Positions 12,023-56,364 of a stretch of DNA of 60,229 nucleotides are shown here, in pieces (position 1 is the stretch's first letter; every line of letters begins with the position of its first letter). A program made the position numbers and the translations under genes. Below the pieces are notes generated by a model. It saw only the letters and a list, made by a program, of their open reading frames with translations. It was not told the origin of the DNA and searched no databases. Origin of the DNA: a virus. Lineage: Duplodnaviria; Caudoviricetes. The stretch covers positions 1-60,229 of the IMG/VR virus record IMGVR_UViG_3300025101_000003. One strand, 5' to 3'.

Positions 12023-12544
12023 GTGAAACGTCTTACAAAAAAACAAAGACGTCTAGCTGAAGATGCGCTTGAGATTGTCCCGAAAGCAATCCACGGTTTT
12101 TGCAAAGCTTATCCAGGTATCCGAAGAAAGCTTGCGCGCATCGACGCAGTTGAGGTAGCTAACCTCGCAGTTGTCAAGGCAGCTAAGACGTACGACAAAA
12201 GCAAGAGTAAAGTCACCACGTATTTCACGATGGCGATCTTCAACTCGTTGCTTAAGGAACTCGCACGGGAACAGCGACGAGGATGTGATGGTCCCGGGCG
12301 GGTCCCGCTTGAGTTCCTAGATTGCGATGAAACCATTGACCTTCGGTCTCGTGATGTACGAAACGCAATGTCTTCGATACCCGACGAGTCTCGGAGACTG
12401 CTTCACAGCAGGTACTTTCACGGTAAGACGCTTGAAGAAATGGCTGGTGAGTTTGGCATTGACCGTCGCACTGTAAGGCGAAGGTTGGAGATTGCTGTTA
12501 CCCAGTTATCATCCGCTTGGGATAACCTCGCTCCCTTGCGATGA
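12023..12544 (+). CDS. Phage-encoded sigma-70-family factor (regions 2 and 4)
   Basis: LAVVKAAKTYD..VTTYF..I.N.L (region 2); RYFHGKTLEEMAGEFGIDRRTVRR (region 4 HTH). Confidence 0.85.
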   Translation: MKRLTKKQRRLAEDALEIVPKAIHGFCKAYPGIRRKLARIDAVEVANLAVVKAAKTYDKSKSKVTTYFTMAIFNSLLKELAREQRRGCDGPGRVPLEFLDCDETIDLRSRDVRNAMSSIPDESRRLLHSRYFHGKTLEEMAGEFGIDRRTVRRRLEIAVTQLSSAWDNLAPLR

Positions 12545-13205
12545 GAGCTCGGCGGATTGTGTTCCGATTCCAGAAGCGACCATTAGTCCTTTTGATCCTG
12601 CGACTTCTTTGCTCTAGCTTCTCGTACGACAGGTGCTCTGACATACGCTTATCTCGTATGCTGCTGATCTGCTTGCGTTCTTCTTCGTCGGGAACAAAGT
12701 AGCCGTGACCGTTAGATCCTATCTTCTTCCATCCGTATGGCACGTAGGGTCCGTATGGTTTACCTTCAGCCTTTAGTTCTTGCATGGCAACTGAAGTACG
12801 AGCACCACCGACATCTCGTTCTAGTTCAGCAAAGACTGTCTGCGTTCTACTGAATGCCTTGCCGTAGGGATTCTCGAAGTCAATGTCTTGGTCAACACAC
12901 TTAAACGTAATCCCTTTTGCTTGAAACATCTTGACAGTCTTGATGCTGTCTTCGAGATCACGAAACGCTCTGTCTAGTTTAGACACAACAACGTAGTCTC
13001 CGGGCTGAGCTAAGAAGTAGATGCCTCTAGCTTCTGGTCTCTCAGAGAATGACTTGCCACCTGACACAGCTGCATCATAGCTCCAGCTAAACTCAACGTC
13101 ATCTCCGAATGTTCGCTTCGCGTACTCAGATACGGATTGCTGTTGGGCTCGTTCAGTAATATCTTGATCGTCTGTTGAGTGACGACCGTATCCCCATACT
13201 TTCAT
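12498..13205 (-). CDS. Serine recombinase (resolvase/invertase family) with a short recombinase-like C-terminal domain
   Basis: YGRHSTDDQ (catalytic Ser), D.AVSG, RP, VVSKLDRAFR, AELER; PYGW...W...TIRR; GAGGAGG RBS. Confidence 0.92.
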   Translation of the reverse strand: MKVWGYGRHSTDDQDITERAQQQSVSEYAKRTFGDDVEFSWSYDAAVSGGKSFSERPEARGIYFLAQPGDYVVVSKLDRAFRDLEDSIKTVKMFQAKGITFKCVDQDIDFENPYGKAFSRTQTVFAELERDVGGARTSVAMQELKAEGKPYGPYVPYGWKKIGSNGHGYFVPDEEERKQISSIRDKRMSEHLSYEKLEQRSRRIKRTNGRFWNRNTIRRALIARERGYPKRMITG

Positions 13206-13369
13206 ATCACCTCCTCTTCTACTTCGGTATGTCCGTACTCCCAGTCAAGGTCGTTTAACTTTCCGGTGCCGTCCCGCAAGTCAACGCTTAGTTCGCATAG
13301 CACCTCAGCTAAGTCTACATCATTTGCTACCCGGAATTTTACCGTGATCTCTTGATGAACTACTTTCAT
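13202..13369 (-). CDS. Small hypothetical protein (55 aa, MKVVHQEITV...)
   Basis: ATGA overlaps at both ends; below the ORF-track cutoff. Confidence 0.6.
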   Translation of the reverse strand: MKVVHQEITVKFRVANDVDLAEVLCELSVDLRDGTGKLNDLDWEYGHTEVEEEVI

Positions 13370-13719
13370 TCTGTCACTTTCTCCTCTCTAAAGAATACAT
13401 TCCGGATTGCTTTTACTGCTGCTTTTAGTCTTGTTGACGTCAGGTAGTAGTCCTCTTCCACACTGAACATGGTCTTTCGATGATGACAGTAGTGTTTTAT
13501 GGTGAAGTTTAATGCGTCCAAGACTTCTGCTGCAATCTCCTTCTGTAGGTACAGGGTACCGGCCTCTAGTTCCGGGTCGTAACAATCATCACACAGGAAC
13601 CGATGTCCATCGGGGGAGTTGATGTCGCATCGTTGCGGGATGTCTTCTCCGCAACCGTCGCATGGAATTTCGTCACCCTCGTACGGAGAGTTATGGTCAT
13701 TGCTACACGAGTTCGTCAT
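13366..13719 (-). CDS. Hypothetical protein with a CxxC...CxxC zinc ribbon
   Basis: CDGC, CDDC; AGGAG RBS before ATG 13719. Confidence 0.7.
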   Translation of the reverse strand: MTNSCSNDHNSPYEGDEIPCDGCGEDIPQRCDINSPDGHRFLCDDCYDPELEAGTLYLQKEIAAEVLDALNFTIKHYCHHRKTMFSVEEDYYLTSTRLKAAVKAIRNVFFREEKVTE

Positions 13720-13846
13720 TGGCTTGATCTCCTGCTGCTTCGTCGTTAGGGAAAACATTACACTCATCACACTTCTCTATAGTCCATCGTGATAGATTGA
13801 TATTAAACGTCAGTAGCCATCCTTTGTTATTGCAAGGTTCACACAT
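13703..13846 (-). CDS. Small Cys-containing protein
   Basis: CEPC...CDEC; AAGGAG RBS. Confidence 0.6.
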   Translation of the reverse strand: MCEPCNNKGWLLTFNINLSRWTIEKCDECNVFPNDEAAGDQANDELV

Positions 13847-14144
13847 TGTCGTCTCCTTCTTCGAGGCTTGCGAGGTGAGCGTCATGCTGGACTTGCCATG
13901 CGTATGCAAGACGCTCTTTCAGCGCAGAGAAAGAGTCCCTGCCTGTCATACGCTTTAGCTTTAACCCCAATTCGATTCCAATTCCTTCAAAGAAGTCCAA
14001 CCGCTTTTCCCACCAGACAGAAGTGTCTTCGCAATCATGCGCTTGCTTGACCGTATCGGTATAGAAGTTAAGGGCGAACATGATAGCGTCCACTTCTTCA
14101 GGAAGCAGGTTGTATTCTATTCTTGTTGGTTCTAAGTCTGACAT
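13839..14144 (-). CDS. Hypothetical early protein
   Basis: GGAG RBS before ATG 14144, just downstream of a terminator. Confidence 0.65.
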   Translation of the reverse strand: MSDLEPTRIEYNLLPEEVDAIMFALNFYTDTVKQAHDCEDTSVWWEKRLDFFEGIGIELGLKLKRMTGRDSFSALKERLAYAWQVQHDAHLASLEEGDDNV

Positions 14145-14156
14145 GTAGTCTCCAAA

Positions 14157-14195
14157 TAAAAAAGCGAGGGGCGCAGCACAATGGCCGCGCCCCTC
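14157..14195 (-). terminator. Rho-independent terminator
   Basis: GAGGGGCGCGGC-loop-GCTGCGCCCCTC followed by GCTTTTTTA on the minus strand. Confidence 0.8.
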
Positions 14196-14205
14196 TAGGT
14201 GTGGA

Positions 14206-14526
14206 TTAGTTATGGTGAGCACCAAGGTTGGTGCGATCAATCTTCGGTCCGATCAAGTCTGATGCAGCACGTAAGGCACGGAAGTTGTGGTGCCGTGTGT
14301 CCTCTACGTACCCAGTCTCGTACAGATGCCTGATGCTAGCAAGAGAGTACATGAAAGCAGTTAGTACTAGCGGGACGATCTCTTTTGTTTTCGCTTCCCG
14401 TTCAGACTTTTCTGCCCAAGTACCCTTTAGCTTTTCGTAGTGTGCTTTGAGGATCTCTGGTCCAAGCTCTGGGCCGTCACCGTACTCGTCGAACACGGCT
14501 CGGCTAGTGCTGGGCAAAGTCGACAC
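14206..14526 (-). CDS. Hypothetical protein
   Basis: Open frame coupled to the GATase gene. Confidence 0.6.
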   Translation of the reverse strand: MSTLPSTSRAVFDEYGDGPELGPEILKAHYEKLKGTWAEKSEREAKTKEIVPLVLTAFMYSLASIRHLYETGYVEDTRHHNFRALRAASDLIGPKIDRTNLGAHHN

Positions 14527-15556
14527 CCCCTAACTTGAAAGGATTGTCGTCTATCTGGTCACACAGGTGGCAGTACAGAACCTCTGCGGCTTCCGGGTCC
14601 CAGTTGACAAGTTCCTCAAGGGTTGCGAGGGGCAGTCCATTCGTTGCTAGGCACTGCACTGCCTCGTAGTCTGATGCTGACAAGTCCTTGAACGCTGCCA
14701 GTATTGGGTCGTCTGCATCAAGAGCCATCATGTCTCTGTCGTTCTCGTCAAGATGCGATGAGTCGTTGTACTGCTTCCTGTCGTTCTCCCGCCACAGCTT
14801 CTCGTGCTCATCAGCATCTGCTTGAGCCTGTTCATCAATCTCCTGAACGTGGCTCGTGTACTTGTTAGTGGACTTGTAGTAATCATCGAGGTAGGGGTTG
14901 CTTTCCTGGTGACCACTAGAGACGCCAACTCCTGTGGTAGTTGTGCCTCGGAAGTTCAACCAGTTGTTGGAGGCTGACGTCACCTTCTTAGGCTTGCCCG
15001 TGTACCGGCTGTAGCTGGTGTAGCTGTAGTTGCTGTACCAGTGCTTGTCTGGTGCTCGGTGTCCTAGATCTGAGTTCCAGATAGTGTGCTCGCCTGTTGA
15101 TTTGAGGAACACCATCTTGTTTCCGTTGCCAAGGAACTGCTCGCCAAGAAACGAACTGCCATGATTCCAAGGGAAGTTGCAGTCACCCTCACACATTGGA
15201 CGAAGCACCTGTGTTACGAAGTGCCATGTGTCGGACATCTTCTTGTTGATGTTGAGTTCTATGTCAAGTATGCCGTTGTGAATAACACACAAGTCTTCGG
15301 TAACTGCAAACGGATGACAGTTCTTGTCGTTGATCTCACCGCTTGTCCTGATCCTGAAGTGTACTAAAGCAGGGTATGCTCGGTACCTCTGGAACTTCTT
15401 CTTGAAATTATTGAACGACGTTGTGCCCTTCTGTGTGATGAGCTTGCCGTCCTTTGCTACAGCGAAACCCCAACCGTCTGGGTTAGACTTGAAGGCTCGC
15501 TTGTACGCGGCCCAGTCAGGCTGGGTCTTGCGTGGTTTGAATATTGCGATGCACAT
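14504..15556 (-). CDS. Class II (Ntn) glutamine amidotransferase
   Basis: Start MCIAIFKP (Cys2 nucleophile), NPDGWG, HFRIRTSG, NCHPF, HNGI, SDT; TAATG coupling. Confidence 0.92.
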   Translation of the reverse strand: MCIAIFKPRKTQPDWAAYKRAFKSNPDGWGFAVAKDGKLITQKGTTSFNNFKKKFQRYRAYPALVHFRIRTSGEINDKNCHPFAVTEDLCVIHNGILDIELNINKKMSDTWHFVTQVLRPMCEGDCNFPWNHGSSFLGEQFLGNGNKMVFLKSTGEHTIWNSDLGHRAPDKHWYSNYSYTSYSRYTGKPKKVTSASNNWLNFRGTTTTGVGVSSGHQESNPYLDDYYKSTNKYTSHVQEIDEQAQADADEHEKLWRENDRKQYNDSSHLDENDRDMMALDADDPILAAFKDLSASDYEAVQCLATNGLPLATLEELVNWDPEAAEVLYCHLCDQIDDNPFKLGGVDFAQH

Positions 15557-16650
15557 TAGGCACCCCTTTCTGCTGTTCGAGTGTAAGAGCGGGAGATATC
15601 TACGAATGATCTGCCGCTTGGGACACTTGCCCCATTTGATCCCATCATGAATGAGTGTCGCATGGGTGATGCCTTCGCTACATCTAAGAACCATCTGCGA
15701 AGGAACGGATACTTGTGGTGATTCTCTCCGACGAACCATCCGTACGTTTTGTCGGAAGTATCGTCCAGCATATACAAAGGAGTTTCCTCCATGAGGTCGA
15801 TGATAGACTCAACGACTTCGATGTTGCGGAGAAGCATCAACGGGTTGAGAGATGAGCGAAAGCCCCTGAACTCAACAAGTGATCTTGGCTTGACGCGAAG
15901 CTGAGAATACTTCTCGTACCCAAGCATGTTGTCAAGCTCCTCTTCGTCGTAGTCTGAGTCCCCGCTGAAAGCACGACGTATGCTGTCGTACGCTTTGATG
16001 TCACTGCCGTACAACTTCCACGCACGCTCTCCGTTTACCATCGCTCGTCTCTTCAGGCGAACACTCCGAGTGTTGCAGTAGTTGGTTGGCTCACGCAAGA
16101 ACAGCGTCTTGTGCATACCGTAACGAGCGATATGGTTGATCCAGTACAAAGTCTTGCACCATGTCAACCGAGAAGCACTCCTGTCAGAGACAGTAACGTG
16201 CATGCCGCAGGACCTGTTAGTCCAAGCACCACCTGTCGGAAACCAACGACGACGGTTGCCTACCATCGACCGAAGTGCATGCCGGTAGGTAGTTGGAACC
16301 GTGTTCGCCTTGTGCTGCTTGCGGCTGAACAACCAGTGATAGAGCGTGTGCTCTGTCTTGGTAAGCGGCACGGTCTTGAGCTCTGCACTCGGCCCACTGC
16401 GAGCCCTGATTGAACCGTCATCGGTGGGCAGGTAGTAGGCGTCAGCAATCTTCACGCCTAGCAACTCGTCCTGAAGCCAGTTCCATATTGAGTCAGCTTC
16501 TTCAGCCTCGTACTCATCGAAGTTATCCATCTCAACCTCGATCCCGTACAGTCTGTTGCTGCTTGTTTGAGACTGCCGCAACCTATGTCTTCTGTCATAG
16601 TTCAGATGACTAAGGGGACAGCAGTCGTATCCGTGGATATCAGTCGGCAT
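15556..16650 (-). CDS. Amidoligase (COOH-NH2 ligase, glutamine synthetase-like fold), copy 2
   Basis: YGIEVE, DDGSI, AELKT.P, SCGMHV, VEFR; GGAGG RBS before ATG 16650. Confidence 0.85.
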   Translation of the reverse strand: MPTDIHGYDCCPLSHLNYDRRHRLRQSQTSSNRLYGIEVEMDNFDEYEAEEADSIWNWLQDELLGVKIADAYYLPTDDGSIRARSGPSAELKTVPLTKTEHTLYHWLFSRKQHKANTVPTTYRHALRSMVGNRRRWFPTGGAWTNRSCGMHVTVSDRSASRLTWCKTLYWINHIARYGMHKTLFLREPTNYCNTRSVRLKRRAMVNGERAWKLYGSDIKAYDSIRRAFSGDSDYDEEELDNMLGYEKYSQLRVKPRSLVEFRGFRSSLNPLMLLRNIEVVESIIDLMEETPLYMLDDTSDKTYGWFVGENHHKYPFLRRWFLDVAKASPMRHSFMMGSNGASVPSGRSFVDISRSYTRTAERGA

Positions 16651-17740
16651 CGTACCTCCTCCATGCGCCCAGAGCTCTGTCTGGATCTTCTGTGGGTAGT
16701 TTAGAACAAAAGTCTGCGTACTCAACAAAGTCTGCCCACATCTTGGCGTGTGCAGTTCTGTCGATTGCAGCGATACTATAGAAGCGAAGGAACTCTATCG
16801 AGCACTCGATACAAGTGAGTGCGTCTGACAATTCCTTGAGTGACGCCGGTGACTTGGGTAGTCGTATCTCGATAGTCTTCCGTCGATGAGATACTGCGTC
16901 AGTCCTGCTGAACTGGCGTCTGTTGATGCGTGAGTTAGCCCCTCGGCTGTATGTCCTTGGGCGATCTCTCCATCCCGGTCGTTGATACGGAGTCTGAATA
17001 CCTTCAATCGGTCCGGGCTCACAGTAGTCTGTGCATTTCCTGCCGAACACATTGCCTTGGTACCCCTGGTTTGACACGATGTTCCAGAACAACGACAGCT
17101 TGCCGACGAGCAAAGGGGTTAAGTCTCTGCGGTCGACATGAACATGCAGTCCGCAGTCCGGCCTGTCCTGAAAGTAATCGAAGTCTACCGTGCTCCAACA
17201 AGCAAGGTGGTTGGCAGTTGTCGCTGGTATGCAGCTGAACTCTGTGCCGATGCCAGGAATGCTTCCGTCATTCTTTGCAATGCAATAAGCACTGGCCTCT
17301 CTTTTCGACAACATGCTGTAGTTGCGATTGAGTTGTGCGTACAGCTCAGTGAATGCGTACGAAGCTGCCACTTTAGCGGAAGCCCCGCGTGGATTGTTAA
17401 GAACATCGTCACGATAAGAGAGTTCAACCTCGATCCCAAGACGGACGCTGCTTTGTCTGAACTTGCGGCTGAAGTTAGTCTTCTCGATTGGGTCTGCTCG
17501 GTAGTGATGATTGCGGATCGTGTACTTCGGGGGGTCTTTGAGCCGGAGGCTACCAACGATCATCAACTGGCCGATTGTTGCAGAGTAGTCCGGCATGTCG
17601 TAAGCAACCGGATAGAGCCAACCACCACAACTGTCACAACGAGCCGCCGTCCTCATCCGAAGCCTTGACGGGTGTCCGTTGCACTCGCACTGGCTCTGCA
17701 TTGAATTAGGCAGGTCGCTTATGGGTATTGCTTCAGGCAT
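16640..17740 (-). CDS. Amidoligase (COOH-NH2 ligase), copy 1
   Basis: LGIEVEL, KNDGSI, GTEFS.IP, DCGLHVHV, TIEIRL. Confidence 0.88.
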   Translation of the reverse strand: MPEAIPISDLPNSMQSQCECNGHPSRLRMRTAARCDSCGGWLYPVAYDMPDYSATIGQLMIVGSLRLKDPPKYTIRNHHYRADPIEKTNFSRKFRQSSVRLGIEVELSYRDDVLNNPRGASAKVAASYAFTELYAQLNRNYSMLSKREASAYCIAKNDGSIPGIGTEFSCIPATTANHLACWSTVDFDYFQDRPDCGLHVHVDRRDLTPLLVGKLSLFWNIVSNQGYQGNVFGRKCTDYCEPGPIEGIQTPYQRPGWRDRPRTYSRGANSRINRRQFSRTDAVSHRRKTIEIRLPKSPASLKELSDALTCIECSIEFLRFYSIAAIDRTAHAKMWADFVEYADFCSKLPTEDPDRALGAWRRYDAD

Positions 17741-17760
17741 TTAGTTTGCCTTTCTAGTTA

Positions 17761-17832
17761 GGGGAGAAAAGAGGGACAGGAACACGCTGCTCCTGCCCCT
17801 CAAAAGAAAGAGCCGACCCTGTAAATAAGGTC
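17761..17832 (-). promoter_or_regulatory. Repeated element copy 1 (core at 17809) with 11-bp stem-loop 17771-17801
   Basis: Minus strand: CCTTATTTACAGGGTCGGCTCT-7nt-GAGGGGCAGGA/TCCTGTCCCTC-TTTT. Confidence 0.75.
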
Positions 17833-17923
17833 AGATAAACATACGCCCAAGCAGTTCAATGACGAACCTCAAGAGCGTTTGAACAATCCAAATCTGTGTC
17901 TCATCCATAAGACATCGATCTCC

Positions 17924-18244
17924 TTAAAGTGCTTGGACATCAAAGCAGAAACTAATCTCTGCTTTCCTTTTACTAGGCCCCCTCTTCCTACTGTGATGCT
18001 TCGGCATCGCATGCGGGGCATACTCGTGCATGCCTTGAAGAATGGGGTACTCAATACCATGCCTTCTGTAGAACATCTGGCATAGCTGCCACTCCATGTG
18101 GCTCAGGCTAGCAAGCTGCTTGAACTCTTTGAGCGAGAACTGTGCAGCCTCTGCTTGCTTGAGAAGCTTCAAGACTTTACGTGCCTTGCGAGCTCTTGCA
18201 CTTGTCCGTCTCTTCCTGCGAAACGGAAGTTTGGTTTGCTTCAT
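17924..18244 (-). CDS. Basic hypothetical protein
   Basis: GAAAGGA RBS. Confidence 0.55.
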   Translation of the reverse strand: MKQTKLPFRRKRRTSARARKARKVLKLLKQAEAAQFSLKEFKQLASLSHMEWQLCQMFYRRHGIEYPILQGMHEYAPHAMPKHHSRKRGPSKRKAEISFCFDVQAL

Positions 18245-18255
18245 CCCGGTCCTTT

Positions 18256-18471
18256 CTAATGAGATGGTTCACTGTACTTCTTAACTCTTAACATCAACGC
18301 ACGGACTTGTGTAATCTCACGCAGGTTAGCCTCGTCATCTGTGGAACTGGGTGTGTCCTCGATGAAGTCTTGGTAGTCGCCAAGAGCTGCAACTAGAATC
18401 CCAAGATCCTCGAATGTGAACTTGCAGTCCACTTGATGACGTGAGCATTCCCGTTCTTCTTGAATAATCAT
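18256..18471 (-). CDS. Small hypothetical early protein
   Basis: Coupled ORF. Confidence 0.65.
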   Translation of the reverse strand: MIIQEERECSRHQVDCKFTFEDLGILVAALGDYQDFIEDTPSSTDDEANLREITQVRALMLRVKKYSEPSH

Positions 18472-18704
18472 TCATCCTCCTTGATGATGGCTATGGTTTC
18501 TTTCCGGTTCACTCGTATCTCGACATGACCACGACCGGCCATGACCACGTTAGGCTGACTGTTCCTATGACGAGTGGACACAGGAACAGTGCATTGAATA
18601 TGATCCACGTAATGACAAGTACCCCTCTCGTGAACAGTCATGGTTGGTTTGCCACGCTGACGCGAGAGGGGCTTGTTGAAGTGGAAGAAAAAACTTCTCT
18701 TCAT
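18468..18704 (-). CDS. Small phage hypothetical protein
   Basis: FFFHFNKP.S......TVH..G.C.......C.VP......QP..VM.G pattern; GGAG RBS. Confidence 0.7.
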   Translation of the reverse strand: MKRSFFFHFNKPLSRQRGKPTMTVHERGTCHYVDHIQCTVPVSTRHRNSQPNVVMAGRGHVEIRVNRKETIAIIKEDE

Positions 18705-18712
18705 CGTGTCTC

Positions 18713-19012
18713 CTATGCACAAGCTGCAAGGGAGTCCCAGAACTCGACAGTGCTTTCCATTCGCTCCTCGGATTCGATCCTCGACTCTGCGTCCATCGTG
18801 TCGAAGATGTGCTGAGCCACAAACCCAGCGAACTGAGCGTCGTCAATGCTATCGTAAGGGTGATTGATCTCATCATCAGAGAACCTGTCGTCCATCAAGA
18901 CAACATGGAAATGAAACCCACGCTGAAAGATCCAGCCGATGCGATTGGCATGGGCATCAGTGACGTAAGCTGCAATGTGACCGTCGCAAGTGGTGGTAGT
19001 TGTCGAGTTCAT
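18713..19012 (-). CDS. Hypothetical early protein
   Basis: AGGAG RBS downstream of repeated element copy 2. Confidence 0.65.
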   Translation of the reverse strand: MNSTTTTTCDGHIAAYVTDAHANRIGWIFQRGFHFHVVLMDDRFSDDEINHPYDSIDDAQFAGFVAQHIFDTMDAESRIESEERMESTVEFWDSLAACA

Positions 19013-19041
19013 AATTAAGAGTCTCCTATTGCATGGTTGAT

Positions 19042-19118
19042 AAAAAGAAAAAGGGACCAGTCACCATGCAGTAACTGATCCCTTCACAAGTAAGAGCCGA
19101 CCCTATAAAACAAGGGTC
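19042..19118 (-). promoter_or_regulatory. Repeated element copy 2 (core at 19093) with a terminator-like hairpin
   Basis: GACCCTTGTTTTATAGGGTCGGCTCT-7nt-GAAGGGATCAGTTAC/GTGACTGGTCCCTTT-TTCTTTTT. Confidence 0.8.
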
Positions 19119-19216
19119 TTCAAGGTTTGCTGTCCGTGTATAGAGACGGACTGATAACAGCGGTCTGCTTTACAGGCATTGACCGTACTATGTCCAGTAA
19201 GTGCTGGAGTTGATTC

Positions 19217-19432
19217 TTAGTAGAGCTGTCCTTGGATGGTGAAGCTTTCTTCTTCATCAGGATTGTCACTCCTTCCTTCTTCACGCCTTTCTATTGCGGT
19301 TTTAATCTTGTCGTAGTGATACCACAGGTTGTACCACTCGTAGATATGACAAACGCTGTCTGTTCTCATCACTTCTATGTCAGTCAGCATTGACTTGACC
19401 ATACGCTCTAGTGCTAAGTCAGGCATCTTCAC
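19217..19432 (-). CDS. Small hypothetical protein
   Basis: Coupled ORF, AAGGAG RBS. Confidence 0.6.
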   Translation of the reverse strand: MKMPDLALERMVKSMLTDIEVMRTDSVCHIYEWYNLWYHYDKIKTAIERREEGRSDNPDEEESFTIQGQLY

Positions 19433-19808
19433 TCCTTACTTTTGGGGGCCAAAACTTTGATGGGTAATCTGTGTTGAACATGTAGATCTTGCAGTCGTCA
19501 AACTCTGGATCAACTTGCTCAGCCCAGTCTTCCTTGAAGACGAACTCGCACATGTCCTTGCGGTACATGCCTCGACTTACGCCCTCGATTGCATCAGCTG
19601 TCTTCTCTGCCTCTTCGGTGAGTGTGCAAAGAGATAACTTAAGCTGTCCGTACTTGGATGGTAGTATTCGTGCGACACCATACTCGTAGTCAACATTCCA
19701 TCCAGGAACTGCAAGCTCGTCACTGATGACTTTGTAACCGTCTGAACCAAACGCTCGTCGCCGCGTCGGGTCATCTCTGAATATGCCATAGAAGGCAAAG
19801 CTACTCAT
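19419..19808 (-). CDS. Gamma-glutamylcyclotransferase (GGCT/AIG2-like) protein
   Basis: N-terminal FAFYGIF; ADAIEG..GMYRK; in the same region as the amidoligases and GATase. Confidence 0.65.
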   Translation of the reverse strand: MSSFAFYGIFRDDPTRRRAFGSDGYKVISDELAVPGWNVDYEYGVARILPSKYGQLKLSLCTLTEEAEKTADAIEGVSRGMYRKDMCEFVFKEDWAEQVDPEFDDCKIYMFNTDYPSKFWPPKVRSEDA

Positions 19809-20044
19809 TCGTAGATATCTCCTGGGTTAAGGGGCCTTGTAAAAGGTAGAGCCGACCCTGCAAAACAGGGGGTCATGCTCATCTCCTGCATCTCTTCTTG
19901 TCGAAGCAGCTCGTCGCGAAGCTTCATGCACTGGTCGCACGCAACAGTGTGTCTCTCTTCGTTCTCAAAGTAGTAGTTGCGAACCATCGCCAAGCTGTTG
20001 ACGATAAGATCAAACTCTGACTCACTCACGGTTATGTTTAGCAA
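19805..20044 (-). CDS. Small hypothetical protein (probable TTG start at 20044)
   Basis: AGGTAGG upstream; ORF track extends to 20164. Confidence 0.55.
   Translation of the reverse strand: MLNITVSESEFDLIVNSLAMVRNYYFENEERHTVACDQCMKLRDELLRQEEMQEMSMTPCFAGSALPFTRPLNPGDIYE
19848..19874 (-). promoter_or_regulatory. Repeated element copy 3
   Basis: CCCTGTTTTGCAGGGTCGGCTCT, 40 nt upstream of the GGCT start. Confidence 0.7.
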
Positions 20045-20051
20045 GAAGCAC

Positions 20052-20333
20052 CTACCTTTCATTAGGGTTTGTACGCATAGGGGAAGGGTCAATCCACCTG
20101 TACTTGCCTTGAAGAAGTGGGATGATATCTGTCGGCCCCTCGTCTTCGTCTTTTCCGTAGACATACAGTCGCAGCTCGTCTTGACTCAATTCGATTACGA
20201 CAAGCGGGTCCATTTCATTGACGCCAAACTGCACGTAATTGGATGTGACTTTGGTTACTGCACCCTCAAGCACAGACCCATCATCTCCACGCAATACGTG
20301 TCTTAGTTCCATAGGAACAGGTGATTGCTTCAT
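20052..20333 (-). CDS. Hypothetical protein
   Basis: Coupled ORF. Confidence 0.65.
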   Translation of the reverse strand: MKQSPVPMELRHVLRGDDGSVLEGAVTKVTSNYVQFGVNEMDPLVVIELSQDELRLYVYGKDEDEGPTDIIPLLQGKYRWIDPSPMRTNPNER

Positions 20334-20521
20334 TTAGCACTCCATTTCTTAGTACATCGAGTTGATATGTAAACAGGCATACCGCACAGCCTGTACTCTT
20401 CAACGAGTCTTAATAGCTCGAGCTTGTATTGACTGAAGATCTTGAAATCTCTGCGGTCGAGTTCATCTACAGTCTCTACGCCTTGTTTGCCTCGCATGTT
20501 GAGGTATCTCAAATGCTGCAA
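20330..20521 (-). CDS. Small phage hypothetical protein
   Basis: YLN....GVETVDE...EY.L....YISTRC.K.W pattern. Confidence 0.65.
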   Translation of the reverse strand: MQHLRYLNMRGKQGVETVDELDRRDFKIFSQYKLELLRLVEEYRLCGMPVYISTRCTKKWSAK

Positions 20522-20528
20522 AGATCAC

Positions 20529-20897
20529 CTACCTTTCTGTGTTGTTTGCCATGCTGGTCTCAAGCTCAGTGAATGCAAGCTTGTCGAACTGTTTCTCTTC
20601 AAGGCCGTTGACTGCAAGCATGATCGCTCGCACGTCTGTTTTGTTTGTAACATGTAGGCCATGCTCTTCCAGACGTTGGACCCATTCCTCCAGGTGGTAC
20701 TTTGGGTAAGCCCACTCAGCGTTATTATTTGCATCCTTCCTCATAGCACGGTACTGATTCCATGTAAGCTTCTTGAAGAAAGCAAACTTTTCTTGAGTGT
20801 TGATATCCGTGGGATCGTATTGCCCAGTCTCGGCGAACGCTCGCTCGTATAATTCTGGGACAGCGTAACTGTCGTACATATTTTGCTCCTTAAGCAA
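20529..20897 (-). CDS. Hypothetical protein
   Basis: Open frame; AAGGAG RBS favours the internal Met (MYDSY). Confidence 0.65.
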   Translation of the reverse strand: MLKEQNMYDSYAVPELYERAFAETGQYDPTDINTQEKFAFFKKLTWNQYRAMRKDANNNAEWAYPKYHLEEWVQRLEEHGLHVTNKTDVRAIMLAVNGLEEKQFDKLAFTELETSMANNTER

Positions 20898-20961
20898 AGG
20901 TTATCGAACAAGAAACATCATGGCACCCAGCATCCAAAGACACTGGGTGACGTGGCACCTC

Positions 20962-21261
20962 TTACTCGGGGTGAACGATTGAACCAACTAATGCCTCCCT
21001 GATGTTGGTCAGGTGACGCATGGTTCCTTCAGTTGCATCAACAATAGTAATGAACTTCTTACGTTCCTTGGACTGCAGCTTCTCTTCGAGTTGCTGAATC
21101 CGAACACGCAAGACCTCAACCTCGGATGGCTGCTGCATCCTATCGACAACAGCCTGACACTGACCACGCCAATACTTACTGGCATTGCTAATCTGACCCT
21201 GGCCGAAGTAACCACCACAAATGCCAAGGGTAAAGAACGCAAGACAAATACTGATACGCAT
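20962..21261 (-). CDS. Membrane-anchored coiled-coil protein
   Basis: N-terminal hydrophobic segment; GAGG RBS. Confidence 0.65.
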   Translation of the reverse strand: MRISICLAFFTLGICGGYFGQGQISNASKYWRGQCQAVVDRMQQPSEVEVLRVRIQQLEEKLQSKERKKFITIVDATEGTMRHLTNIREALVGSIVHPE

Positions 21262-21280
21262 AGGTACCTCATCTTTCTAA

Positions 21281-21350
21281 AGGGAAAAGAAACAAGGAGC
21301 AGCAGAGTGCTGTCCCTCAATAGATAGAGCCGACCCTATAAAAATAGGGG
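21281..21350 (-). promoter_or_regulatory. Repeated element copy 4 (core at 21326) with stem-loop
   Basis: CCCTATTTTTATAGGGTCGGCTCT-7nt-GAGGGACAGCA/TGCTGCTCCTT-GTTTCTTTT. Confidence 0.78.
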
Positions 21351-21716
21351 TTAAACGAACTTACCGGACAAAATTCTCTCAAGATCATCAGCTAGGGAGA
21401 TAGCGTAGGCAGAACCGAACCTGCCCTCTCCTCCTTCGGCATACTCGTCCGCAAGGCTTTCGCCCATGCGTTTGAGTGCTTGAATGATTGAACGCATCTG
21501 CGGGGGTGTGATTGTGTAATTATCCCTACCCTCAAACTTCAGGTCATCGTAGAGCTTCTCGTTCACTGCCCTCACTTCCTTAAGCTCCTCGCTAAGCTTG
21601 AGCTTCTCTTGCATAACTTCCTCCCAAGCTTGATTGGCCGCTGTTACCGACTTACGTAAGTCAGCTTGCTTGTCGAGAAGCCTGGCAAGCTTATAGACGT
21701 TAATCTTTACGTTCAT
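21351..21716 (-). CDS. Hypothetical coiled-coil protein
   Basis: Coupled ORF. Confidence 0.65.
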   Translation of the reverse strand: MNVKINVYKLARLLDKQADLRKSVTAANQAWEEVMQEKLKLSEELKEVRAVNEKLYDDLKFEGRDNYTITPPQMRSIIQALKRMGESLADEYAEGGEGRFGSAYAISLADDLERILSGKFV

Positions 21717-22123
21717 GAATCTCTCTCTTTCTTGAGTTCTAGGTACTGATCAAGTAACGTCTTCGCGACATCAACCCACTTATCCATAGGTGGGTCTACA
21801 ACTGAGGGGCCGTCGTCAAAGTGACCCTTGGCGTCTATGGAATAGTCCCACAATGCGTAGTACATACATCTCTTTGCCTCGACATCGAACTCGCCAAGCG
21901 GCTGTTCCCAATATGCCTGATCCCTTTCTTCTTTTTCAGGAAGCTCCTCGCACAGGTCCTTGTCCTTCATTAAAGACTTGGCTGCCTCCAAGTGTTCAAG
22001 CTTTGGGTTGACGAGGTTGAACTTCGCATAGTCGTACGGCCTAGCGTTCTTGACGTGGTAATCAAGCACGTAAAGCACACAGTTCAATTCAGCATCACTG
22101 AGTTGTACTTGTGTAGTTGTCAT
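21713..22123 (-). CDS. Hypothetical protein with an internal duplication
   Basis: LSDAELNCVLYVLDY and FDVEAKRCMYYALWDY. Confidence 0.65.
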   Translation of the reverse strand: MTTTQVQLSDAELNCVLYVLDYHVKNARPYDYAKFNLVNPKLEHLEAAKSLMKDKDLCEELPEKEERDQAYWEQPLGEFDVEAKRCMYYALWDYSIDAKGHFDDGPSVVDPPMDKWVDVAKTLLDQYLELKKERDS

Positions 22124-22150
22124 ATCTATCTCTCTTTCTTAAAGGGGAAG

Positions 22151-22200
22151 GTTGATGCAAAGGTACATCAATCCGCCCAGCCCCGAAGGACTGAGCGATT
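22151..22200 (-). promoter_or_regulatory. Tandem hairpins including a cUUCGg tetraloop
   Basis: CGCTCAGTCC-TTCG-GGGCTGGGCG, then TTGATG/CATCAA. Confidence 0.55.
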
Positions 22201-22210
22201 TGGCGAACCC

Positions 22211-22423
22211 TTACCAAGGCTGACCCAGCTCCCACGCTAGGCTGGACTCGAGCCGGACAATGGTGTCCCGAACGCTACTCGGCATTGGCTTGCCTTCGTA
22301 GTCGCGTACGACCTGCTCCATGCTGTGCAGGAGGTGGTGAACATCGTCTGCTCGGTCAGCAACGAAGTCACCGGCTTCGACAGCCTCGCGTAAGGCAGGG
22401 TTCGGGATGTATGAAAGCGGCAT
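22211..22423 (-). CDS. Small hypothetical protein
   Basis: Start downstream of element copy 5. Confidence 0.6.
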   Translation of the reverse strand: MPLSYIPNPALREAVEAGDFVADRADDVHHLLHSMEQVVRDYEGKPMPSSVRDTIVRLESSLAWELGQPW

Positions 22424-22445
22424 AGCATTCTCTCTTTCACTAAGA

Positions 22446-22510
22446 GGGGAAAAGGAAGGAGAACAAGACTGTCTCGTTCTACCTATAGAGCCGACCCTAG
22501 GAACAAGGAC
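22446..22510 (-). promoter_or_regulatory. Repeated element copy 5 (core at 22487) with stem-loop
   Basis: CCTTGTTCCTAGGGTCGGCTCT-7nt-GAACGAGA/TCTTGTTC. Confidence 0.75.
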
Positions 22511-22872
22511 TAAGCGGCTTTCGTAAACCGCCCAGTCTTTGGGTCACGTAACCTACGCTGTATCTTGGCAACCGAGTCACGGGTAGAATCCAGACGGACG
22601 TGGTTGTAAGTGACGACATCCTTGATGCGGTGGACTAAGTTCCGCAGTGTCATCAGCGTGACGAAGAACCAAGCAACCATGAAGACACCAGCAATCGCAA
22701 GGATATCTGTAACCGTCAGCGTTACCTGTGTGCTGCTAACCCATGCAGCAACAGTGGGCATAGCTTCTGCGTACAAGTCCTGTGCCAAGCGTACGGTGTT
22801 GTCGAACCCGTAGCGGTTAGCACTGTAGATACCTGAACCAACAACAGCACCAAGCATGAATACAAATCGCAT
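22510..22872 (-). CDS. Membrane protein, first gene of the minus-strand block
   Basis: Hydrophobic segments; AGGAG RBS; ends RDPKTGRF. Confidence 0.7.
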   Translation of the reverse strand: MRFVFMLGAVVGSGIYSANRYGFDNTVRLAQDLYAEAMPTVAAWVSSTQVTLTVTDILAIAGVFMVAWFFVTLMTLRNLVHRIKDVVTYNHVRLDSTRDSVAKIQRRLRDPKTGRFTKAA

Positions 22873-22884
22873 AGCTCAATCTCC

Positions 22885-22960
22885 TAGCAGGTAGCAGTAG
22901 CAGTCACCGTTGCTGCCACTGTCATCCGCTACAGATAGAGCCGACACTAGGAAAACAGTG
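22885..22960 (-). promoter_or_regulatory. Repeated element copy 6 (core at 22937) with stem-loop
   Basis: CACTGTTTTCCTAGTGTCGGCTCT-7nt-GCGG..CAGTGGCAG/CTGCTACTG..CTGC. Confidence 0.72.
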
Positions 22961-23188
22961 CTAAGCCACAGGGCAGCGGTAGGGTATAAGAGGAAGAAGG
23001 AAACACGGTGGGGTGTTATGGTGCTCGCGTCGTCTTAGCATAGATGGGGTCCCACCTGTTATGGTATAACGCTAGGAATTACGGCAGAAACGGAGGCAAA
23101 TTGCAAAGACCCCTTCCCCCCCATCGCGGTCAAATCATATATTACGTTCCGCCCCTGGATTTTTTCCCGATTTTGCGTTTGAGGTCAC

Positions 23189-23434
23189 ATGACGTCCATC
23201 CACCAATGCTCGCCTGAAATTCACGTATTGACCCCAAAAGGCGAGGGTCATTGCCTGTTTCTGATTGACTATGGCCCCATGATCAACACTGTGTGGGTGG
23301 TGCATTTGTTTAAGGACGGTACGGTTTTACACTTTGATTCCTCAGATGTCCGTATCTACGGCAACTTGATGTATGGGATCAAGGACCCTGAGGAGCATCA
23401 TTGCACCAAGACGGTAGATACTGGGCATGAATAA
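23189..23434 (+). CDS. Small phage hypothetical protein
   Basis: TPKGEG....IDYG....WVV....G pattern; GAGG RBS. Confidence 0.7.
   Translation: MTSIHQCSPEIHVLTPKGEGHCLFLIDYGPMINTVWVVHLFKDGTVLHFDSSDVRIYGNLMYGIKDPEEHHCTKTVDTGHE
23411..23434 (+). promoter_or_regulatory. Candidate late promoter motif, copy 2
   Basis: ACGG-N8-GGGCATGAATAA just before the structural block. Confidence 0.35.
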
Positions 23435-23437
23435 AGT

Positions 23438-25021
23438 ATGGACCCACTAGATAAAGCAATTTACGACTCGCTGTTTACTCCTAGCAATCCAGGTCGACCT
23501 GGTGATGACTATGAGGCAATGTACGGGGATTACCAGTTAGCTGGTGATGTAGCAGGGACAGGCACCCCGGATTCTTTGGAAGAACAGGCAGCGTTAAGGG
23601 AACAACTCCTTAATCAGTTAAATGACAGATATAGTCGGTCGGGTCCTGGGGCTCGCTTTTCACCGCAAGTATTGGCCGACAGGACTGGTGAAGCGTATCG
23701 GAGAGAACTTGAACGTCGCGGGTTTGATCCTGACGAGTACATTAATCCCGAGGGGGTTAGGATAAAGTATCCCGAGCTGATGTTTGACAATGCAGGTCAG
23801 ATGGAGGCAGCAAAGGCGGCTTATCGTAGGCAGGGTGTCCCCGGCTTGATTGAGCTGGACCCCGAAGGCTATGGGGCATACGAAGGCTTTGAGCCAAACT
23901 CGGACTTTCTGGCATCAGGTAGAAATACTGACGCCTATGCGGAACATCTACTTCCCCCCGGCTATGCGGACCTGCTTCGTGCTGAACGCGATTACGATAT
24001 CGCAAGAATGATGGCAAAAGATCCGGAGCTAGAGGAACTTGGGATGGGTCCTCTCCGGGCGTATACGCAGGACAACATACCGTTCAGTAGACACAGCAAT
24101 CTAGCTGGTGAGCCATATTACCCAAGGTTTCAGGGGACAATGCGTGGCATGTTGAACGCTATGGAAAGTGGATCAAATGCTCCTGTCATGAGTGGCATGG
24201 AGCAAACGATGGGTCTTCTTCCCAACGCTATTTACTTCAATGCCGACACGCCCGTTAGCACTGGTGGTCCGGTTGCAACACCAGCCGGTGTGATTTACCC
24301 ATCGTCACCCCAGCAAGACTCCGACTTCGGTTCGTCATTCGATAAGGCGAGTAAGTTTCTAGGGGAGCGAGCTGACGTCAGAAGCGGCATGGCAGACAAG
24401 ACAGCATTGGACAACCCATACGGCACATCGACATCAGACAACATTAGAAGTCTTCGCAACGAGGAAGAAAGGTTGCGAGACAGAACACCTGCGATGGGGA
24501 CGGACTCAATACGAAGCCTCACTGGTTTAAGTGTGCCACCTGTTCTTGGTGATATTTATGACGGTGTAGCTAATGTAATGGACGGCAGTCAGGCACTTGG
24601 CTTGATAGGCGGAGGGCCTCTTGGTCCTGCTTTAACTGCCACAGCAAAGGGCTTGAAGGGAGATGCTGCTCTCGACCTTGGGATAAGCTCAACGCTTGGT
24701 GCTGCTTACGGAGGAAACCCGGATCGAAGTTGGGGAGAATATCTCTTTAAGCCTGATACAGAAAGACAAGCTGCTCCTCAGGCAGTAGTCGACCAAAGGT
24801 CGCGCGAGCCTGTGTTTGGCACTGGTGAACGAAAGTTTGGCACCATGAGTGAAGCCAAGGAGTTCGCTAAGTATGCCACACCCCCTGAATTAGCAGAACA
24901 ATATAAAAATTCGCGAAGCGAACGCGCGGCGCAAATGTTGCAGAAGCAACGCGAAAAACGCGAGGCTGAAGCCGCAAGGCAACGAGAGATCATGGGGAAC
25001 CCATTTAAGTTCCAACCATAG
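23438..25021 (+). CDS. Hypothetical protein, probably an internal virion protein
   Basis: 527 aa, G/A/P/D-rich like the ejection proteins; precedes the scaffold gene. Confidence 0.65.
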   Translation: MDPLDKAIYDSLFTPSNPGRPGDDYEAMYGDYQLAGDVAGTGTPDSLEEQAALREQLLNQLNDRYSRSGPGARFSPQVLADRTGEAYRRELERRGFDPDEYINPEGVRIKYPELMFDNAGQMEAAKAAYRRQGVPGLIELDPEGYGAYEGFEPNSDFLASGRNTDAYAEHLLPPGYADLLRAERDYDIARMMAKDPELEELGMGPLRAYTQDNIPFSRHSNLAGEPYYPRFQGTMRGMLNAMESGSNAPVMSGMEQTMGLLPNAIYFNADTPVSTGGPVATPAGVIYPSSPQQDSDFGSSFDKASKFLGERADVRSGMADKTALDNPYGTSTSDNIRSLRNEEERLRDRTPAMGTDSIRSLTGLSVPPVLGDIYDGVANVMDGSQALGLIGGGPLGPALTATAKGLKGDAALDLGISSTLGAAYGGNPDRSWGEYLFKPDTERQAAPQAVVDQRSREPVFGTGERKFGTMSEAKEFAKYATPPELAEQYKNSRSERAAQMLQKQREKREAEAARQREIMGNPFKFQP

Positions 25022-27970: not shown

Positions 27971-28000
27971 GCTTGCCCACCATTGGTACAGTCGTATAAT
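27971..28000 (+). promoter_or_regulatory. Putative promoter of the packaging operon
   Basis: TTGCCC-16nt-TATAAT containing GGTACAGTCG. Confidence 0.55.
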
Positions 28001-35616: not shown

Positions 35617-36488
35617 TACCTAAAAATTACCCCGGTGCAGGAAGGGCTCCGTCTGCCTCAAGCCTTGTGGAGGGCGAGCTTGCTCTAAATACTGGCGACG
35701 GCTGTCTTTACACTAAGCTTCGGGACGGTCGTGTTGTTAAGATTGTTGCCCGAAGTTACTCAGGCGACGAACAAACAGGTGGGACAACCGTCTCGTCCGA
35801 TATAAGTTTTATAGATGTATTAGACGTCACTTCTTACGCTGGATCAGCAATGGCTACTGTTCCTGGCACTCTTATACTAGATGCCGGTAACGGAAAGGTT
35901 GAGCTTCAAGGTGGGTCAGGAAACAGTGCTGAGCTTACTTTTAATTGCAGTGCAAACTCGCACGGCGTAACAATTAAAAGCCCCCCTCATTCTGACAACG
36001 CGACCTACTCTTTGATTCTTCCAACGACAGCTGGAACAGCAGGGCAAGTGCTGACAACAAACGGCTCAGCAGGTGTTCTCAGCTGGTCAACAATGTCATC
36101 TAGTGGAACAAATCACGGATCAAATCACCATACGGGTGGCGCTGATGAATTAACACCGGCGAATATAGGTGCGGCGGCAGCGAGCCACTCATCAAATCAT
36201 CACACGGGCGGCAGTGATGCTTTGACCCCAGCAAACATCGGTGCAGCGGCAGTCAGTCACTCATCGAGTCATCACACGGGGGGCAGTGACGCTTTGACCC
36301 CAGCAAACATCGGTGCAGCTGCAGCGAGCCACGCTTCAAATCACCACACAGGCGGAAGTGACGCACTGACACCTGCAAGCATTGGTGCCCCTGCAAGCAC
36401 AACAATTACGCATATCGTAAAGCTGACACAGGCTCAGTATAACGCGCTGAGTTCAACACCAGCAACAACCCTGTACATAATCACATAG
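35607..36488 (+). CDS. Tail fibre-like protein with His-rich repeats
   Basis: L.EGELALNT.DG.LY N-terminus; GQVLTT.G; C-terminal LTQAQYNAL...TLYII. Confidence 0.75.
   Translation: MAVVPKNYPGAGRAPSASSLVEGELALNTGDGCLYTKLRDGRVVKIVARSYSGDEQTGGTTVSSDISFIDVLDVTSYAGSAMATVPGTLILDAGNGKVELQGGSGNSAELTFNCSANSHGVTIKSPPHSDNATYSLILPTTAGTAGQVLTTNGSAGVLSWSTMSSSGTNHGSNHHTGGADELTPANIGAAAASHSSNHHTGGSDALTPANIGAAAVSHSSSHHTGGSDALTPANIGAAAASHASNHHTGGSDALTPASIGAPASTTITHIVKLTQAQYNALSSTPATTLYIIT
36114..36401 (+). repeat. Four 72-bp coding tandem repeats (24 aa, HxSNHHTGGSDALTPANIGAAAAS)
   Basis: Units start at 36114, 36186, 36258 and 36330. Confidence 0.9.
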
Positions 36489-49387: not shown

Positions 49388-49680
49388 TGAGTAAAGAAAT
49401 AGACAGCTACGAAGTTGACATTGAGGATCTTCCAAGAAAAGAACTCCTAAAGATGATCCGCAAGATGAAGGCCGGTCGTGTTAGCTCTACAGAGGAAGAG
49501 AAAGAAGAAGACATCAAGAAGTCTGAGGAAGAACGCGAAAAGCTCTCTAAGCTTCGCGAAGAGAAGAAGGGCAAAGCGGATAGCCCTAAGGTCGAGAAAG
49601 ACGACTTGCCAGAAGGCTTTGGCAAGAAGAAAGAAGACGACGAAGATAAAGACGAAGACGACTCAGATAAGGACGACTGA
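49387..49680 (+). CDS. Highly charged Glu/Lys/Asp-rich protein
   Basis: Coupled ORF. Confidence 0.65.
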   Translation: MSKEIDSYEVDIEDLPRKELLKMIRKMKAGRVSSTEEEKEEDIKKSEEEREKLSKLREEKKGKADSPKVEKDDLPEGFGKKKEDDEDKDEDDSDKDD

Positions 49681-53873: not shown

Positions 53874-53886
53874 CTGAGGATAAGAA

Positions 53887-56355: not shown

Positions 56356-56364
56356 GGAGATGCC

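Follow-up and report, generated by a model that had tools for sequence, protein, structure and literature searches.

Repeated single-strand-oriented elements in a family of uncultured phages: lineage-specific cores, leader hairpins and a probable role as phage-specific promoter cassettes

T4-type phages carry cassettes called PeSL, in which a promoter is combined with a G/C-rich stem-loop that attenuates transcription arriving from upstream; PeSL sets are described as differing in sequence between phage lineages, and recombination between copies as shuffling genes (PMC2839356, PMC4122927). Another promoter with a hairpin is that of the phage N4 virion RNA polymerase (vRNAP), where, according to PMC4496689, the stem has 5-7 bp, the loop has 3 nt and the structure is centred at -11. 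Here we describe a repeated element that occurs in six copies in the minus-strand gene block of IMG/VR virus record IMGVR_UViG_3300025101_000003, together with its counterparts in related phages. The stretch analysed (60,229 bases, hereafter the window) is the whole virus record, and it belongs to a widespread, uncultured phage family with genomes of about 60 kb that is found in marine and other metagenomes. No RNA polymerase is recognisable in this family, yet a single gene block carries as many as 14 copies of a long, lineage-specific signal that is not of the sigma70 type. On balance we regard the elements as phage-specific promoters joined to 5' leader hairpin/attenuator cassettes, analogous to PeSLs but not sigma70-type.

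The repeated element in the window and in related phages

Exact matches to AGAGCCGAC were found on the plus strand at 17809, 19093, 19848, 21326, 22487 and 22937, with one more at 37179. The core TCGGCTCT occurred eight times, whereas 100 shuffles averaged 2.05 and never exceeded 5; six of the eight matches are the minus-strand motif copies. When a 26-nt position weight matrix (PWM) built from the six copies was scanned over the 60,229 bases of both strands, the copies scored 32.5-39.9 bits and the next best site on either strand scored 12.2, so the window holds exactly six copies and the site at 37179 is a chance 9-mer. A scan with a 14-base pattern returned 71 single matches, consistent with chance. 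All six copies are co-oriented on the minus strand and lie between 17.8 and 23.0 kb.

Read along the minus strand, a copy consists of a T-rich stretch, YAG(G/T)G, TCGGCTCT, seven mostly T/C bases and a purine, which lies exactly 7 nt past CTCT and is G in five of the six copies and A in copy 4 (19855). Copy 1 (22929-22961), the first element of the minus-strand block, has the dyad CACT(G)/(T)AGTG and the core GTGTCGGCTCT, followed by ATCTGTA and a predicted +1 G at 22929 (36.3 bits). Copy 2 (22479-22509) combines a weak dyad, (T)CCT/AGG(G), with the core AGGGTCGGCTCT and a predicted +1 G at 22479 (32.5 bits). The core is preceded by the dyad CCCTAT/ATAGGG in copy 3 (21318-21350, predicted +1 G at 21318, 39.9 bits), by CCCTG/CAGGG in copy 4 (19840-19871, predicted +1 A at 19840, 35.1 bits), by GACCCT/AGGGTC in copy 5 (19085-19118, predicted +1 G at 19085, 36.5 bits) and by GACCTT/AGGGTC in copy 6 (17801-17832, predicted +1 G at 17801, 37.7 bits). 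From the end of the core to the ATG the distances are 64, 63, 64, 39, 80 and 68 nt. Copy 4 lies within the last codons of the upstream open reading frame (ORF), the TGA of which overlaps the next ATG. No sigma70-like hexamer pair was found at any copy; a promoter scan of 12-24 kb gave four promoter-like sites, none of them at the elements. The first-pass annotation, made from the letters of the window, had described six co-oriented copies 40-80 nt before minus-strand start codons (39-80 nt as measured here from the core end), each with a purine exactly 7 nt further on and none with sigma70 boxes, and each of these points was borne out.

A capsid protein search of IMG/VR gave 83 relatives among 85 candidate stretches, of which 80 were kept; the G+C content of most relatives is 60-66%. 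No cultured relative was found by DNA search, by capsid tblastn or by tblastn with the 1,064-aa protein p1064 (see below). When 185,579 species, each represented by one genome, were scanned for the capsid, a single relative emerged, on a 25.5-kb contig of a metagenome-assembled genome, and thus no prophage was seen.

The relatives carry their own repeated motif, in 5-14 copies, in the block antisense to the capsid gene. The core is a property of the lineage: TCGGCTCT in the window, GCGGAGTC, GGTCGGCGAGT and CACTTTTCT in relatives, making three motif types besides that of the window. Type A (..GATTTCCCGCTGCGGAGTCTGGTTTGTAG) is the commonest, with at least 11 loci; type B (CCCCTTGTTTTCAGGGGTCGGCGAGTTCTTTGTAG, seven loci) is nearest to the window motif; and the third, a dyad plus CACTTTTCTATATGTAG, is that of a relative with 49% G+C (L146). 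Common to all types are a T-rich 5' piece (TGaTTTC or TGTTTT) and a (T)TGTAG-like 3' end. The 12-14 nt between these shared parts differ by lineage, yet they are the best-conserved portion within a genome. Among the matches listed, a type-A 15-mer was multi-copy solely in contigs of this phage family.

Strand, gene-start and hairpin counts were made in eight complete genomes (the window and seven relatives) with 77 core matches, seven of which are in the window and include the chance site at 37179. All 77 matches lie on one strand of their genome and none on the other. A gene start was present downstream of 75 of them, at a median of 63 nt between core end and start codon. In whole-genome PWM scans, the copies with high scores fell within the block that runs antisense to the structural genes (14 of 18 matches in G003, 10 of 13 in G004 and 6 of 9 in G001), the remaining matches in these genomes having lower scores and lying mostly outside the block. 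Counts of exact 10-mers gave seven copies in G006, 12 in G008, nine in G002 and five in G009, and at least one type-B-like copy is present in G005.

A further non-coding element, ACGTTCC..CCCCTGGATTTTTTCCC, was noted on the plus strand of the window at 23144-23168, in the divergent region before the first plus-strand gene. It is shared by L073, G001 and G004 and is conserved in relatives ranging from 49% to 63% G+C. Through its CCCCTG(G)ATTTT part it is similar to the 5' half of the minus-block motif, and it may be the counterpart signal of the plus strand.

Leader hairpins and gene turnover between the elements

In five of the six window copies a hairpin of unrelated sequence begins at the purine or within 1 nt of it, and in four copies a pyrimidine/T tract follows the hairpin. 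The first-pass annotation had placed five hairpins at that base, four of them with tracts. All of these hairpins are on the minus strand. That of copy 1 (22885-22931; minimum free energy (MFE) fold, z -1.98) lacks a T tract, and the Shine-Dalgarno (SD) sequence (AGGAG) and the ATG at 22872 follow it directly. The copy 2 hairpin (22460-22480) has nine pairs followed by CCTTCCTTTT. In copy 3 (21294-21318) the inner stem spans 21300-21312, the outer stem was read by eye and a T-rich tract follows; this hairpin is orthologous to one in L076, from which it differs by a compensatory G-C to A-T change. The copy 5 hairpin (19050-19085) is terminator-like, with 16 pairs followed by TTCTTTTTAT (z -4.69), and that of copy 6 (17771-17801) has 14 pairs followed by TTTTCTCCCC (z -4.56), its stem being kept in the relative L001 with only the loop differing. 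Copy 4 has no leader hairpin.

The association holds across the family. An MFE of -20 kcal/mol or below was found in the 50 nt after the motif in 49 of 77 copies, compared with 110 of 1600 random windows; this threshold replaced a laxer one of -10 kcal/mol, which 64 of 77 copies passed but so did 597 of 960 random windows. Hairpins with at least five T in the next 10 nt followed 22 of 77 copies and were present in 7 of 960 random windows. In the leader of the first cassette, compared among seven relatives, 18 pairs are predicted and seven of them show compensatory changes. The comparison held 16 G.U cells versus one C.A cell, an asymmetry which indicates that the large hairpin is an RNA structure of the sense strand. 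Its well-supported helix starts at the G following ..TTGT or ..GTA, which is the +1 of the first-pass annotation; the fixed offset would be explained if selection favoured a hairpin opening precisely where transcription begins.

None of the eight first copies of a block has a T-rich tail, the hairpin running directly into the SD sequence. This distribution suggests that U tracts are present only where there is upstream transcription to stop, and that the hairpin may have a general role in the leader of its own mRNA, with attenuation added in some cassettes. A stem-loop at the extreme 5' end is known to protect Escherichia coli mRNAs. Hairpin-less copies stand directly before the SD sequence (window copy 4, L146 5597, G004 3885 and G003 56347), and the G005 copy likewise lacks a hairpin. 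The release of RNAs of about 40 nt, which had been suggested for the elements, is possible for the minority of copies with a U tract and not for the rest.

Other structures were noted in the same region. A search of 12400-23500 against Rfam gave no match at E ≤ 1. Intergenic hairpins without the motif are present on the minus strand at 14166-14195, about 22165-22200 and about 20925-20950, the first of which is strong and terminator-like and also begins with GAGGGGC. In MFE folds of copies 1, 5 and 6, GGCUCU.. of the motif pairs with the downstream SD region; in a read-through RNA containing the motif the ribosome site could be masked in this way, or the pairing may be a chance match of pyrimidines and purines. 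At four type-B loci (L129 ~4527, L130 ~3817, L083 ~2161 and L088 ~833) a long conserved leader, GTAGCAGGTCAGCGGCACC...CCGCATTTCC..., replaces the simple hairpin and may be a structured RNA.

The genes between the elements turn over. When L140 and L114 were compared, blocks of homology began 5-17 nt ahead of the motif with extra cassettes between them, and three of these blocks barely exceed the motif plus hairpin (67-147 nt). Population variants of the window, defined as contigs about 95% identical to it, delete the gene at 21727-22158; they also have the body of the gene at 22215-22412 swapped for 162 other bases with copy 2, the hairpin and the start codon kept, and they replace the copy-4 region by a junction bearing a copy-5-like motif. 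They further lack 20049-20525 (477 bp), a deletion between two 31-nt direct repeats (20041-20071 and 20518-20548) that cover a GAAAGGTAGGTG ribosome site and a TTG start. Gene content thus changes at conserved intergenic sequences. The 477-bp deletion joins the 31-nt repeats and not motif copies, and the pattern looks like homologous exchange, as in PeSLs, rather than the use of recombinase sites. A 366-aa protein encoded next to copy 6 was set aside as evidence: its only relative is on an 8,094-bp contig that starts 2 nt past the predicted +1, most simply because an assembly broke at a repeat.

Candidate readers and competing explanations

The record is classified as 100% complete, with direct terminal repeats; its two 99-base ends are identical. 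Genes are arranged in two blocks, one per strand. The plus-strand block starts at 23189 and runs through the structural genes, including the capsid (26194), probable terminase (28748) and portal (30740) genes, the tail fibres and three large unannotated proteins (49680-59559); it then crosses the record ends into genes of recombination and replication (exonuclease, Erf, helicase and RusA) and ends with a gene for an extracytoplasmic function (ECF)-type sigma factor (12023-12544). The minus-strand block extends from about 22960 down to the gene for a 235-aa serine recombinase (12498-13205) and holds about twenty small genes, two amidoligase-like proteins and a glutamine-amidotransferase-like protein. 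None of the ten small genes tested in this block had a PHROG match; the first encodes what reads as a hydrophobic protein of 120 aa. The cluster at 14504-17740 on the minus strand, which is conserved in relatives, encodes two paralogous proteins with GxExE and HVHVD-like motifs and an N-terminal zinc ribbon, without a family match, that we take to be amidoligase-like, along with the class-II glutamine-amidotransferase-like protein. On the plus strand, at least three tandem 72-nt repeats (36113-36395) mark the end of the gene preceding that for a 1,307-aa tail fibre with an Mtd_N domain. Sigma70-type promoters are present on the plus strand at 758-786 (TTGACT-17-TTACAC), before the exonuclease, Erf and helicase genes, and at 27973-28000 (TTGCCC-16-TATAAT), just past a terminator hairpin downstream of the capsid genes. 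The host signal is thus ordinary in this phage, and the minus block is set apart from it.

The ECF-type sigma factor, a plus-strand product of 173 aa, matches TIGR02937 at 64.2 bits (cut-off 42.9). No other transcription-specificity gene was recognised in the window, and each of the 11 family genomes examined (the window and ten relatives) has this one, which makes it, by elimination, the simplest candidate for a protein that reads the motif. Region 2.4 of the sigma factor hardly varies from one motif type to another, and the same holds for the TGTAG-like end of the motif; the shared T-rich and TGTAG parts lie 17-18 nt apart, a sigma-like spacing. When the sigma alignment was set against motif type, the differences tracked lineage and were not decisive.

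On the reading that we favour, each element would be a phage-specific transcription-initiation cassette. Its contiguous signal of about 26-33 nt would comprise a T-rich upstream part, flanked in this lineage by the short dyad, the invariant core AGGGTCGGCTCT at positions of about -19 to -8, T-rich bases from -7 to -1 and the purine at +1, where we infer from the sequence pattern that transcription starts. The first base of the mRNA would open a stable RNA hairpin, to be followed by a pyrimidine tract, the SD sequence and the start codon. The hairpin may protect the 5' end of the cassette's own mRNA and, where it has a U tract, may also attenuate read-through from the cassette upstream. As the signal is of a non-sigma70 kind with a core that changes from lineage to lineage, the reader would presumably be phage-specified, most simply as host core RNA polymerase with the phage ECF-type sigma factor, or alternatively as a polymerase or factor that escapes sequence-based recognition. 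Since about 30-70 nt of near-identical sequence is shared among the cassettes, they could double as points at which homologous exchange reshuffles the intervening small genes.

Several observations are natural for a promoter and awkward for RNA cleavage, nut-like antitermination or recombination. The elements and the gene starts are co-oriented, some copies have no hairpin, one copy lies in a coding region, and the first copy has neither a same-strand gene upstream nor a sigma70-like promoter before it. At G003 56347 the SD sequence starts about 1 nt past the predicted +1, so the mRNA must start at or before that base. The layout is also that of a contiguous polymerase-specific promoter, with an A/T-rich part, a specificity core, a T-rich stretch, a purine start and a G-rich initial transcript. 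A non-sigma70, phage-specific promoter with its +1 at the hairpin base and an architecture like that of the T4-type cassettes, in line with the first preference of the first-pass annotation, is accordingly the best fit to the comparative data, with the start itself placed by prediction.

Other findings weigh against this reading. A +1 at the hairpin base places a complete terminator in the element's own transcript in about one-third of copies. The small upstream dyad is less regular than had been claimed. Its arms do change together in a few copies (CACT/AGTG in the window; GCCTA/TAGGC and TGTCTA/TAGACA in L146), and in 27 distinct copies the mean stem score was 5.31 for matched arms compared with 4.93 for mismatched arms. 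This covariation is modest (28 of 2000 permutations, in a test that ignored relatedness, reached the observed score), and the dyad is weak in copies 2 and 6, with just 3-4 pairs if neither a G.T pair nor the GAC...GTC extension is included. There is no strand asymmetry (15 G.T against 19 A.C), the loops range from 3 to 9 nt, and the dyad is absent from type A, the commonest; it thus appears to be real but dispensable.

The fit to an ECF-type sigma factor is imperfect as well. The motif is off the usual ECF geometry, and type A has neither an AAC-type -35 nor a conserved element 16-17 nt before a -10. Taking the T-rich and TGTAG parts as -35 and -10 makes the "spacer" the most conserved portion, and the start that follows from such a parsing, 6-8 nt further on, falls inside the SD sequence at G003 56347. 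Within the window, moreover, the TGTAG-like hexamer varies (CTGTAG, AGGTAG, CTATTG, CTTTTA, CTTGTG and CTTTTG). With regard to a phage polymerase, no RNA polymerase gene was found among the large ORFs with PHROGs, Pfam or NCBIfam. A six-frame search with PF00940 (E ≤ 1), run without a positive control, yielded nothing, and neither did one with PF00623, a profile that matched 14 of 14 control genomes. Sequence searches of the PDB were negative for all three large virion proteins, and alignment of the p1064 profile with the N4 mini-vRNAP (hhalign) gave a probability of 0.3%.

Among the alternatives, we give a minority weight to the possibility that the elements represent a new promoter class, with a contiguous signal of about 26 nt that includes an upstream DNA hairpin in some lineages, and with a reader that is either an unrecognised virion-delivered protein (e.g., of the p1064 family) or the ECF-type sigma factor reading one long element. 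Protein p1064 (plus strand, 56365-59559) has a conserved AHVDY..PFY..SR block and belongs to a family of 1,308 metagenome cluster representatives of about 1,100-1,250 aa, with no Pfam or PDB match; its nearest ESM Atlas clusters are viral hypotheticals, one of which carries LPD38. The two proteins preceding it are poorly conserved and of low complexity, a pattern that would be expected of ejection proteins. A DxDxD motif in a 1,397-aa protein was rejected, as it is not kept in relatives.

It is unlikely that the elements act instead as RNA punctuation, in which a long transcript would be cleaved at the motif by a host or phage endoribonuclease, so that one mRNA would end in the small hairpin and the following one would open with the large hairpin. 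The hairpin-linker-hairpin architecture, the fixed offset of the large hairpin and its nature as a sense-strand RNA structure are all in keeping with cleavage, which would also dispense with the missing polymerase for a non-sigma70 promoter; the lineage-specific core could then track a phage nuclease among the unannotated small genes. However, the terminator-like U-tract hairpins would halt a polycistronic precursor, cleavage at copy 4 would remove the stop codon of the ORF in which that copy lies, and the commonest motif type has no upstream hairpin at all. The first copy would in addition need an extra promoter upstream, where no sigma70-type one was found.

Quite improbable, in our estimation, is a role as protein-binding DNA sites like the stoperators of mycobacteriophages, or as operators overlying promoters, where a bound phage regulator would block or modulate transcription of the genes in the block. 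Like stoperators, the motif is asymmetric, co-oriented, intergenic and multi-copy, with a lineage-specific sequence. Stoperators are genome-wide sites of temperate phages with an immunity repressor; here the sites are restricted to one block, no repressor was recognised and the capsid scan revealed no prophage. The fixed register of the motif with the hairpin start and the start codons is not accounted for by such a role, and a nearby promoter would still be needed at each site.

A distributed version of lambda nut antitermination, in which the small hairpin and linker in the nascent RNA would recruit a phage factor past the downstream terminator, we consider scarcely probable. It was prompted by the boxB/boxA-like appearance of the window copies: four stand directly before terminator-like hairpins, the order is hairpin and then a GCTCT-containing linker, with GCTCTTA in the copy at 19100, and the upstream dyad shows its modest covariation. 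The comparison weakens this part of the first-pass annotation. GCTCT, and with it a conserved boxA linker of the kind that host NusB/NusE recognise, is not kept in the relatives, whose cores are GCGGAGTC, GGTCGGCGAGT and CACTTTTCT; several copies have no hairpin and about two-thirds of the hairpins have no U tract; and the small hairpin is missing from the commonest type. Lambda has one nut site per operon, whereas the sites here number one per gene; their loops are U-rich, many copies have no terminator, and the hydrophobic product of the first block gene is not a basic RNA binder.

The most improbable reading is that the copies are sites for the resolvase-type serine recombinase encoded at the block end, defining excisable cassettes: gene content between copies does vary in relatives and population variants, but 6-14 direct repeats would promote deletions, the one clean deletion lies between the 31-nt repeats and not between motif copies, other breakpoints are at start and stop codons of single genes, and the fixed offset to hairpin and start codon would have no role in recombination.

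Comparison with known systems

The signal resembles phage polymerase and sigma promoters but falls outside the T7-type and N4-type definitions and fits the canonical ECF one imperfectly. Like the T7-type promoters described in PMC4496689, it is a contiguous block reaching to the predicted +1 with an A/T-rich part, a specificity core, a melting stretch and a purine start, and its specificity is that of the lineage, with many copies per genome; in contrast, the block here is longer, at about 26 nt before the predicted +1, and no T7-type polymerase gene was found in the window. With the N4 vRNAP promoter, as presented in the same paper, it shares a short DNA hairpin with variable paired stem bases beside conserved bases, whereas the dyad here is centred near -24, has more variable loops and is absent from the commonest type, and no protein recognisable as the giant virion polymerase, p1064 included, is encoded.

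A podovirus-like phage with its own sigma factor and a short motif without a -35 element offers another likeness, as set out for phiEco32 and 7-11 in PMC4331800. The published cores of these phages, tAATGTAtA and TGATGT, resemble the (A/T)TGTAG motif end over a short length. Their motifs are 9-12 nt long and located at -10, whereas the strongest conservation here is 8-19 nt before the predicted start. Compared with ECF sigma promoters in general, a cognate sigma factor is encoded and the shared parts are suitably spaced, but the "spacer" is conserved best.

Among known systems, the PeSL cassettes of T4-type phages come nearest, with the same place and parts and, it appears, the same evolutionary role. 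PeSLs differ in having near-consensus sigma70 -35 and -10 sequences, which are lacking at the six window copies; in placing the stem-loop within or just before the promoter, whereas the large hairpin here is past the predicted start and in the transcript; and in the core, which is here a contiguous, lineage-specific block of 12 nt. Should the signal prove to be a promoter, the reader could be sought directly through its sequence, be it the family's own sigma factor or a hidden polymerase, and the cores that differ by lineage would amount to a natural set of orthogonal promoter/reader pairs. As in PeSLs, a stem-loop that could terminate or attenuate transcription stands between the stop codon and the SD sequence of small orphan genes, and the gene turnover looks like PeSL-type modular exchange outside the T4 group.

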